Shown piece by piece: positions 59,431 to 61,169 of a DNA stretch of 64,000 nucleotides. Location: sequence record NC_054920.1, one strand, 5' to 3'. The translations under genes and the position numbers were made by a program. Numbering within the stretch: position 1 is the stretch's first letter; each line of letters begins with the position of its first letter. The notes beneath the pieces were generated by a model. The model did no database searches and was not told the DNA's origin. It saw only the letters and a list, made by a program, of their open reading frames with translations. This DNA is from Escherichia phage vB_EcoM_G9062.

Positions 59431-60360
59431 ATGTCAGGATATAATTCTCAGAATCCAAAGGAACTCAAAGATGTCATTCTAAGACGTTTAGGGGCTCCAA
59501 TTATTAATGTTGAGTTAACACCCGATCAAATTTATGATTGTATCCAGCGTGCCCTAGAATTATACGGTGAATACCATTTTGATGGACTTAACAAAGGTTT
59601 TCATGTATTTTATGTAGGAGATGACGAAGAAAAATATAAAACTGGAGTCTTCGATTTAAGAGGTTCAAATGTATTCGCAGTAACTCGCATTTTGCGAACA
59701 AATATTGGATCAATAACGTCAATGGACGGAAACGCTACATATCCATGGTTTACTGATTTTCTTTTAGGAATGGCTGGTATTAATGGCGGTATGGGGACTT
59801 CTTGTAATAGATTTTATGGACCAAATGCCTTTGGAGCTGATTTAGGATATTTTACCCAGCTTACCAGTTACATGGGAATGATGCAAGATATGCTCTCTCC
59901 TATTCCAGACTTTTGGTTTAATTCAGCAAATGAACAGCTCAAAGTCATGGGAAACTTCCAAAAATATGATTTAATTATCGTAGAAAGCTGGACTAAATCA
60001 TACATTGATACTAATAAAATGGTTGGAAATACAGTAGGATATGGAACAGTCGGTCTACAAGATAGCTGGTCATTATCTGAACGATATAATAACCCAGACC
60101 ACAATTTAGTTGGTCGTGTTGTTGGTCAAGACCCAAATGTTAAACAGGGTGCTTATAATAATCGTTGGGTGAAAGACTATGCTACTGCTTTAGCTAAAGA
60201 ATTGAATGGTCAAATTTTAGCACGCCACCAAGGTATGATGCTTCCTGGCGGTGTTACGATTGATGGACAACGCTTAATAGAAGAAGCTCGATTAGAAAAA
60301 GAAGCATTACGTGAAGAATTATACTTGCTTGACCCTCCGGTGGGAGTGTTAGTTGGATGA
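59431..60360 (+). CDS. 13: neck protein gp13
   Basis: 309 aa as T4 gp13. Confidence 0.9.
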
Positions 60361-61169
60361 ATTATACTAAAATTTACAACTCTCTTATAGAAAGATCTCT
60401 TAAAAGAGGTCTTAATAAGAAAAAATTAGATTATTATACAGAATCACACCATATTGTCCCAAAATCCATGGGAGGAGATGACTCTAGAGAAAACAGGGTT
60501 TTACTGACAGCAAGAGAACACTATTTTGCGCATGAGCTTCTTTTTAAAATACACCGAAATTCTGAAATGGCTTATGCCTTAATAAAATTCTCCAAGGGTA
60601 CAAAAGAGCAGAGAATTGTAAGTAAAGATTACGGATGGATTAAAGAGGAAACATCTAAAATTAGATCAGAAACAATTAAAAAGTTTTGGGCGAATCTATC
60701 ACCAAATTTAAAACAGGAACGAATTAAAAAAGCCGGAAAAGGCATTAAAAAAACTAAATCTTTATGGACAGATGAAAAGAGAAAAGAAGTTAATGCAAAT
60801 ATTCGAAAAGCTTCTGTGAAATATTTGGAATCGTTATCAGAAAACGAAATGTTAGAATATAAAGAAAGATGTTCTAAACAGATGAAAGATTTTTGGTCTG
60901 AGCTTAAAAGTGACCCCCAAAAATACGAAAAGTATTTAAATAAACTATCTAAGGGTCTTGCAAAAGTCGAAAAGAGAAATTGCCCGCATTGCGGAATTAT
61001 ATGTGATGTAGGAAATTATGGAAAATACCACGGCGATAAATGCAAAGTTATCACGGGTGTATCTCATAGCAGAGAAAAATTAAAATGCCCGCACTGTTCT
61101 AAAATCATGGATAAGTCTCACGCTAAAAGATACCATTTTGACAATTGCAAATTTAAGAAGGTCGAATAA
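60357..61169 (+). CDS. freestanding HNH endonuclease with C-terminal zinc fingers (270 aa)
   Basis: HNH motif [32 protein letters not shown]; Lys-rich linker; two CPHC...C modules; ATGA overlap with gene 13 stop and 1-nt gap to gene 14. Confidence 0.7.
60357..61169 (+). mobile_element. putative homing endonuclease insertion between genes 13 and 14
   Basis: gene not present at this junction in T4 as I recall it; inserted precisely between two conserved neck genes. Confidence 0.5.

Follow-up and report, generated by a model that had tools for sequence, protein, structure and literature searches.

The 64,000-nucleotide stretch of Escherichia phage vB_EcoM_G9062 analysed here (sequence record NC_054920.1, referred to below as the window) carries on its + strand, at 60357-61169, an open reading frame (ORF) which we consider, with good confidence, to encode a free-standing HNH homing endonuclease of the Mob family, active now or until recently, whose gene reached the junction between the neck genes 13 and 14 by homing. 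The gene is free-standing in that it sits between the two neck genes and not within an intron or intein. A mobile Mob-like insertion at this place had been proposed in the initial annotation, and the proposal is now supported by homology, by sporadic distribution, by population genetics and by two near-isogenic pairs of genomes with and without the gene, which we refer to as filled and empty. The gene and the parts of its predicted product are as follows.

60357..61169, + strand: Mob-family HNH free-standing homing endonuclease gene, 270 amino acids (aa) plus stop, assigned by ORF call and homology; protein 100% identical to that of phage T6
60357..60554, + strand: predicted HNH catalytic domain, aa 1-66 (alignment of 67 homologues, AlphaFold model)
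60624..60965, + strand: helical middle region, aa 90-203, with five long helices, NUMOD3-like in homologues
60981..61043, + strand: predicted CCHC zinc knuckle 1, residues C209, C212, H225 and C229 (regular-expression scan, family comparison)
61086..61148, + strand: predicted CCHC zinc knuckle 2, residues C244, C247, H260 and C264, invariant in the family (alignment of 67 homologues)

With regard to family membership, the HNH motif noted in the initial annotation is matched by Pfam HNH_4 with 24.4 bits (E 2.8e-5) against a curated cutoff of 22, and its assignment to the HNH homing endonucleases is supported by a match of PHROG 655 ("homing endonuclease") over aa 1-267 (E 2.7e-52) and by T4 MobE, the product of the ORF between nrdA and nrdB, which is 33% identical over 247 aa in BLASTP (E 6e-29). 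The T4 genome holds 5 places matching the endonuclease, and over aa 1-111 the identity is 50.5% with the T4 ORF that lies between gene 55 and alpha-gt, the interval given as the mobB position in the table of PMC2988022. On these comparisons MobE appears to be the closest characterised relative, and by homology and architecture we assign the ORF to the Mob-family HNH free-standing homing endonucleases.

In an alignment of 67 full-length homologues the invariant columns are M1, Y3, Y7, E29, H31, H32, P35, G40, N46, H55, H59, L62, C244, C247, H260 and C264, which together make up the HNH core and one CCHC zinc knuckle. The two C-terminal CxxC modules reported earlier are both there, each as a CxxC...H...C pattern (aa 209-229 and 244-264). 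The knuckle is a modular unit present in 0 to 4 copies per family member, and on this count two copies would not be unusual for the family. The AlphaFold model has a predicted local distance difference test score (pLDDT) of 93.5 and shows five long helices over 90-203 and the knuckles as two small units of beta-hairpin plus helix. Its HNH core is predicted to be of the beta-beta-alpha kind, with strands at 28-32 and 47-51 and a helix at 52-66 (pLDDT 94-98), and structural matches to solved HNH domains are weak. Foldseek gave weak local matches to HNH domains and to zinc-finger arrays, and a sequence search of the PDB gave only motif-level matches (E >= 0.076) with no solved structure resembling the whole protein. 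The helical middle region is poorly conserved and is presumed to be a DNA-tracking linker.

The ORF calls agree with the earlier description of a 270-aa ORF that overlaps the gene 13 stop as ATGA and ends 1 nt before gene 14: its ATG (60357-60359) overlaps the gene 13 stop TGA (60358-60360) in the context GGATGA, and its TAA ends at 61169 with a single spacer base (61170) before the gene 14 ATG at 61171. The ORF downstream matches Pfam T4_neck-protein (E 3.8e-107). T4 itself had been described as having no gene here, and its coordinates bear this out, with gene 13 ending at L003:6554 and gene 14 starting at L003:6556 after a 1-nt spacer. The G+C content of the endonuclease gene (0.32, against 0.31-0.37 in the flanks) is uninformative on foreign origin. 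The surrounding features are these.

59431..60360, + strand: gene 13, for the gp13 neck protein or head-tail adaptor (309 aa ORF; 98.4% identical to T4 gp13, 99.7% to T6 gp13)
60339..60357, + strand: recoded 3' end of gene 13, the putative left arm of the mobile cassette (fixed differences between filled and empty)
61167..61173, + strand: TAA-T-ATG junction (junction alignment)
61171..61996, + strand: gene 14, for the gp14 neck protein, disrupted by a 55-bp repeat; the frame stops at 61728 after 185 aa
62038..62856, + strand: gene 15, for the tail sheath stabiliser (272 aa), downstream in the same late gene block (ORF, annotations of relatives)

Comparison of the two allele types shows that more than the ORF has been exchanged. 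The empty allele of T4 and others reads ...CCT CCA TTT GGA ATT TTG GTA GGT TAA T ATG GCT, and the filled allele ...CCT CCG GTG GGA GTG TTA GTT GGA TGA..(endonuclease gene)..GTC GAA TAA T ATG GCT, a net insert of 809 nt. The endonuclease stop thus takes over the TAA-T-ATG context that closes gene 13 in empty genomes, and within the last 21 nt of gene 13 there are 8 fixed nucleotide differences between filled and empty, which change F to V and I to V. All 13 filled loci carry this recoded block unchanged, and all 7 empty loci depart from it. Sites polymorphic in filled and empty genomes alike begin again at 60333 to the left and at 61182 to the right. The mobile cassette would therefore cover about 60339-61166 (~830 bp), and on the alignment it brings a replacement for the last seven codons of gene 13. 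The earlier description of a gene wedged exactly between genes 13 and 14 holds for the coordinates of the ORF but not for the cassette, which also takes in the recoded gene 13 end.

The distribution of the gene is sporadic. Megablast of the 13-15 region puts the window in Tequatrovirus, as 45 Tequatrovirus records carry the whole arrangement at 96.6-99.4% identity, including all three records of phage T6, in which the RefSeq name is already "homing endonuclease". By tblastn the same 45 records were found at >= 97% protein identity, with nothing between 60% and 95%, and below 60% the matches, in about 1,000 records, are to Mob-like paralogues encoded elsewhere; the T4 Mob homologues occupy nrd, topoisomerase and exonuclease loci. 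For empty sites the query was a 201-nt chimera of the window's own flanks, which matched 419 records in one piece, the best at 95.0% identity, that is with 10 mismatches in 201 nt. None of these 419 has the filled-type gene 13 end. About one Tequatrovirus record in ten is thus filled (45 filled, 419 empty), and the gene is not at the junction in most of these records.

This distribution also bears on a quite different role, that of an HNH accessory to the terminase in packaging, of the kind found in cos-type phages and placed near genes 16/17. The ORF and the terminase genes belong to one late block, the latter lying about 1.7 kb further downstream, and HNH genes adjoining terminase genes are described as common in other phages (PMC3592412). 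However about 90% of Tequatrovirus records, T4 included, lack the gene yet package normally, its homologues are T4 Mob proteins and not terminase-associated HNH proteins, the architecture with helical linker and CCHC knuckles is that of Mob proteins, and genes 14 and 15 separate the ORF from gene 16. We consider such a role very improbable and reject it on distribution and homology.

Evidence for movement of the endonuclease gene comes from comparison of its diversity with that of its neighbours in 13 filled loci.

Endonuclease gene: 12 polymorphic sites in 810 nt (9 synonymous), 1.5%, 6 haplotypes
Gene 13: 119 polymorphic sites in 927 nt, 12.8%, 12 haplotypes
Gene 14: 76 polymorphic sites in 768 nt, 9.9%, 11 haplotypes

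The endonuclease gene is about 8 times less polymorphic than the flanking genes, and in sliding windows diversity is 0-0.008 inside the insert against 0.02-0.08 in the flanks. Flank divergence between filled and empty genomes equals the diversity within each class. On these figures the age of the element would be about an order of magnitude below that of its backgrounds, and the filled genomes appear to form no clade at the 13/14 locus.

It could be argued that the gene, decayed or domesticated, survives only as an immobile remnant inherited vertically, the empty sites being repeated losses. There are frameshifted copies, 1 nt off at 809 or 811 nt, in phages F1, FN, SHFML-26 and CJY920, the F1 copy (L025:301-1112) being split into two ORFs of 153 and 106 aa, and the gene has kept the same junction through 22-30% protein divergence of gp14, which can be read as long residence. 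But under vertical descent the gene should be at least as diverse as its flanks, whereas its observed diversity is lower by a factor of about 8, and the flanks do not separate filled from empty genomes. A precise loss would also have to restore the empty-type block of 8 differences, for which gene conversion from an empty allele would be needed. Finally the ORF is intact, its catalytic residues and zinc ligands are invariant, and the ratio of nonsynonymous to synonymous substitution rates (dN/dS) is 0.16-0.28. We regard a remnant as unlikely, and the frameshifted copies are as expected of a decaying selfish gene, fitting a late stage of the homing endonuclease life cycle.

Recent homing is also the simplest reading of the window itself. 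Over 5.9 kb only 17-18 substitutions separate it from the empty phages Isf-Pm2 and UAB_60, with 10 falling at the junction, and it is identical to the filled phage G2540-3 over 60226-62231, with ~48 differing sites upstream of 60226. The pattern is most simply read as a gene conversion from a G2540-3-like donor into an Isf-Pm2-like recipient, with the left crossover apparently 28-131 nt upstream of the insert and the right crossover presumably somewhere in 61167-62231, a stretch without differences between donor and recipient. Taken with the diversity data, this leaves the mobility of the endonuclease gene well supported by comparative evidence.

The same junction is occupied in other T4-like lineages. 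Three metagenomic relatives (P0002, P0003 and P0004) are 52-57% identical to the endonuclease (57% in one, 52% in two), and all are encoded directly upstream of a gene 14 homologue whose product is 70-78% identical to T6 gp14. Locus L005 retains the ATGA overlap and the TAA-T-ATG, and in L004 and L006 a spacer of 9 nt precedes the ATG. L005 is from a close relative of Shewanella phage Thanatos-1, in which the site is empty. The flanks of the two are 99.2% (left) and 99.7% (right) identical if one sets aside a replaced 8-nt spacer and the final ~18 nt of gene 13, where there are 7 substitutions. The two constitute a second, independent near-isogenic filled/empty pair with the same pattern of a recoded block. 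The dN/dS of 0.16-0.28 was obtained between these lineages and is approximate, as synonymous sites are saturated; it points to purifying selection on the endonuclease gene. Invariant columns across the lineages make up 56% of the HNH domain and 58% of the zinc knuckles, against 18% of the helical middle, and knuckle 1 is kept in all four lineages, with knuckle 2 nearly identical in all four.

Two further observations concern these loci. L004 has a second Mob-like HNH gene (L004:1621-2217) between genes 14 and 15, beside the 13/14 endonuclease; its 198-aa product has the elements HHILP...ILDHLLAHE, NUMOD3-like repeats and one CPYC...H...C knuckle. There is thus room in the neck/tail-completion block for two neighbouring endonuclease genes. 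The L005 endonuclease gene (L005:1054-1069) ends in NCK-LVG* followed by T-ATG, of which LVG*-T-ATG matches the end of T4 gp13 (L003:6543-6558) with only synonymous differences, and Thanatos-type gp13 ends instead in ILIG* followed by the 8-nt spacer. We offer as a suggestion only that the LVG* end may be a remnant of an earlier Tequatrovirus-like host junction carried with the cassette; if true it would mean transfer between phages of different host genera.

With regard to expression, the late promoter TATAAATA does not occur on the + strand after 53035 (scan of 53043-64000), and scans of 59300-62200 for sigma-70-like promoters and for terminators gave background levels, with no + strand terminator. 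As no promoter was found we take the endonuclease gene to be promoterless. It would be transcribed late, together with genes 13-15, from promoters upstream of gene 13, and its translation would be coupled to that of gene 13 through the ATGA overlap. The recoded block also creates, at 60334-60346, CCUCC-GGUG-GGAG, a 4-bp hairpin over the Shine-Dalgarno-like GGGAG. Translational control of the endonuclease by this hairpin was considered and rejected, as the fold is no better than that of shuffled sequence (z = -0.01).

We infer a mechanism of homing from MobE (PMC2790892) and from the general biology of free-standing endonucleases (PMC13096335). When filled and empty phages infect one cell, the zinc-knuckle and helical parts would bind the insert-free junction, roughly CCATTTGGAATTTTGGTAGGT-TAAT-ATGGCT, and the single HNH site would nick or cut it, as MobE nicks nrdB. 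T4 recombination-dependent repair would then copy the cassette of ~830 bp (60339-61166) from the filled genome. The recoded last seven codons of gene 13 would keep gp13 intact while destroying the target, thereby giving self-immunity, and the re-used TAA-T-ATG context would keep gene 14 translationally coupled. As fixed differences are confined to the ~20 nt next to the insert and co-conversion on the left extends over no more than 131 nt, we predict a cut at or very near the insertion point, and not hundreds of bp away as with SegF/SegG. The sequence CCATTTGGWATTTT, common to the empty gene 13 ends of T4 and Thanatos-1, is a candidate for the core of the target.

The initial annotation had also pointed to a duplication in gene 14 about 500 bp downstream, and this is indeed present.

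61652..61761, + strand: perfect 2 x 55 bp tandem duplication within gene 14 (Tandem Repeats Finder: 100% matches, 2.0 copies)

The repeat is of exactly 55 + 55 nt, lies 483 nt downstream of the endonuclease ORF and is the sole perfect tandem duplication in the window. (A degenerate array of 24/48-nt tandem repeats, 2.8-3.6 copies with 71-81% matches, is present in a coding region at 45836-45968.) The bases at its edges do not extend it, so that there is zero microhomology, and as 55 is not a multiple of 3 the frame of gene 14 is shifted and gp14 cut to 185 of 256 aa. With one copy removed, gp14 regains its 256 aa and is identical to the T6 protein. The repeat is absent from 45 related phage records, each 55 nt shorter across the stretch, and from 10 independent contigs that encode an identical endonuclease, all with a 256-aa gp14; searches of IMG/VR and of complete E. 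coli genomes and plasmids did not find the repeat junction, and no database record was found for the truncated gp14 product.

In T4 gp14 is essential, and a phage with such a lesion should not form plaques. The number 55 is also the default largest (final) k-mer of the assembler SPAdes for short reads, and circular contigs from SPAdes have a terminal overlap of length k. When such a contig is rotated to a conventional start and the overlap is not trimmed off, a tandem repeat is left in its interior. It is thus very likely that the repeat is an assembly artefact unrelated to homing, a k=55 end-overlap left when a circular contig was re-oriented.

The initial annotation had read the duplication as a possible scar of endonuclease-triggered double-strand-break repair. 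If genuine it would be a product of template switching or mis-resolution during the repair that installed the cassette, and the window does resemble a recent recipient, with an Isf-Pm2-like background and a G2540-3-like cassette. The repeat, at 483-593 nt beyond the insert on the downstream side, falls within 61167-62231, where the right crossover may lie, and in T6 the free-standing endonuclease SegB drives tandem segmental amplification through microhomology (PMC13096335). However the SegB units are of 718 bp, at microhomologies and kept by selection, as against 55 + 55 nt here with zero microhomology at the edges, and the repeat is missing from the 45 records and from the 10 contigs with an identical endonuclease. 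The truncation of an essential protein, with which the phage should not propagate, and the coincidence of length with the SPAdes default k-mer also count against a scar. We consider a genuine duplication improbable, and slightly less probable still that the repeat marks the point at which the homing event of the cassette was resolved, the window being then a snapshot of error-prone repair in a defective genome.

There are several points that weigh against the interpretation as an active homing endonuclease acting at this junction or against parts of it. Pfam PF07460 (NUMOD3) has no match at E <= 0.01, though many homologues carry NUMOD3. Low diversity in the endonuclease gene could be due in part to a selective sweep instead of homing. 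We infer the target site only from the position of the fixed differences, and L004 and L006 keep a T4-like CCATTTGG gene 13 end though filled. Immunity therefore does not require the recoded block in every lineage, and in L004 and L006 protection may come from the interruption of the site by the insert. Lastly, an artefact is the most likely explanation of the 55-bp repeat, and this reading rests on the form of the repeat, which is exactly 55 bp, unique and lethal.

Comparison with known systems helps to place the 13/14 endonuclease. T4 MobE is promoterless, relies on upstream transcription and nicks the insert-free allele (PMC2790892, Wilson & Edgell 2009). Both proteins have an N-terminal MNYxKIY...HHIxPxxxGG...N...LTAREH core and a C-terminal CPHC...H..xC knuckle, and MobE is likewise squeezed between two genes, nrdA and nrdB, with start and stop codons overlapping both neighbours. 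MobE is also alike in being promoterless, no promoter having been found for the 13/14 endonuclease either. They differ in that MobE lies among nrd genes and the 13/14 endonuclease between neck genes of the late operon, with presumably a different target, in that MobE has one zinc knuckle and the 13/14 endonuclease two, and in that the mobE gene has an internal intrinsic terminator (PMC2790892) whereas none was detected in the 13/14 endonuclease gene. MobB, the activity of which is given as "ND" in PMC2988022, is the best T4 match to the HNH domain. However the similarity to MobB is confined to the N-terminal 40% and it is at another locus.

I-HmuI and I-TevIII are alike in combining an N-terminal HNH domain with an extended modular DNA-binding region, and I-TevIII uses a zinc finger, but both are intron-encoded and the 13/14 endonuclease is not. 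The structures of I-HmuI and I-TevIII are not among the fold-search matches listed (top 50 and top 60).

In the case of the Seg enzymes, these are GIY-YIG nucleases that usually cut hundreds of bp from their own gene, and Belle et al. (2002) reportedly described intronless homing by SegF and SegG of T4, with localised marker exclusion. The 13/14 endonuclease resembles SegF and SegG in having a free-standing gene beside conserved genes, with an insert-free relative that would be cleaved, the gene and short flanks copied and the target in the host altered. It is unlike them in being of the HNH and not the GIY-YIG type, and in having its fixed differences within ~20 nt of the insert and a left tract of no more than 131 nt. 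SegB of T6 generates 718-bp repeats at microhomologies, maintained by selection for dosage of an anti-defence gene (PMC13096335), which demonstrates that tandem repeats can arise close to a free-standing endonuclease gene through the action of its product and is the only published support for the idea of a scar. The single 55-bp repeat of the window is unlike these in being out of frame, without microhomology and in an essential gene.

Some observations on related records may be of use to others. LR597660.1 (Escherichia phage T4_ev151) carries a T6-type 13/14 endonuclease at 99.3% identity, where the site in T4 is empty; if T4_ev151 comes from an evolution experiment with mixed phages it could document laboratory acquisition of the element, and in the literature we found its name only cited in passing in a single paper. 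There are annotation oddities in related records (L002 / AP018814.1 and L020 / NC_041919.1), one T6 record labels gp13 as "aerobic NDP reductase large subunit", gp15 of the T6 RefSeq record starts later (256 aa as against 272 aa), and phage HP3 is filed as Rosemountvirus with a 13/14 locus that is Tequatrovirus-like. The fibritin gene (wac, 58200-59300 in the window), which lies shortly upstream, is hypervariable between these phages, close as they otherwise are, with a pairwise diversity of 0.10-0.30 per 100-nt bin as against 0.01-0.08 in genes 13-16, and its product has 481 aa in the window and 485-487 aa in relatives.

The gene is not new to the databases, which carry it under a generic T6/Tequatrovirus annotation. 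Literature searches found no publication on the T6 gene or the 13/14 endonuclease, and the 2010 review of T4 mobile elements (PMC2988022) is silent on it; by its homology it appears to be a new, uncharacterised member of the Mob family. The understanding of homing endonucleases is not changed by it and the value of the finding is practical and descriptive. The 55-bp repeat is best treated as a probable assembly error and not as biology. What we have is a Mob element of the classical phage T6 with an unusually clean natural record, comprising two near-isogenic pairs and a left tract of no more than 131 nt, and with a predicted target that is short, namely the last ~20 nt of gene 13 and the TAAT-ATG junction. 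Its residence in an essential late operon would be made harmless by the replacement codons for gene 13 and the re-used stop/start context of gene 14, and one homing site has been kept in four T4-like lineages, from coliphages to the relative of Thanatos-1. If the enzyme is active it would also be of direct use in accounting for marker exclusion around genes 13/14 when T-even phages are crossed.

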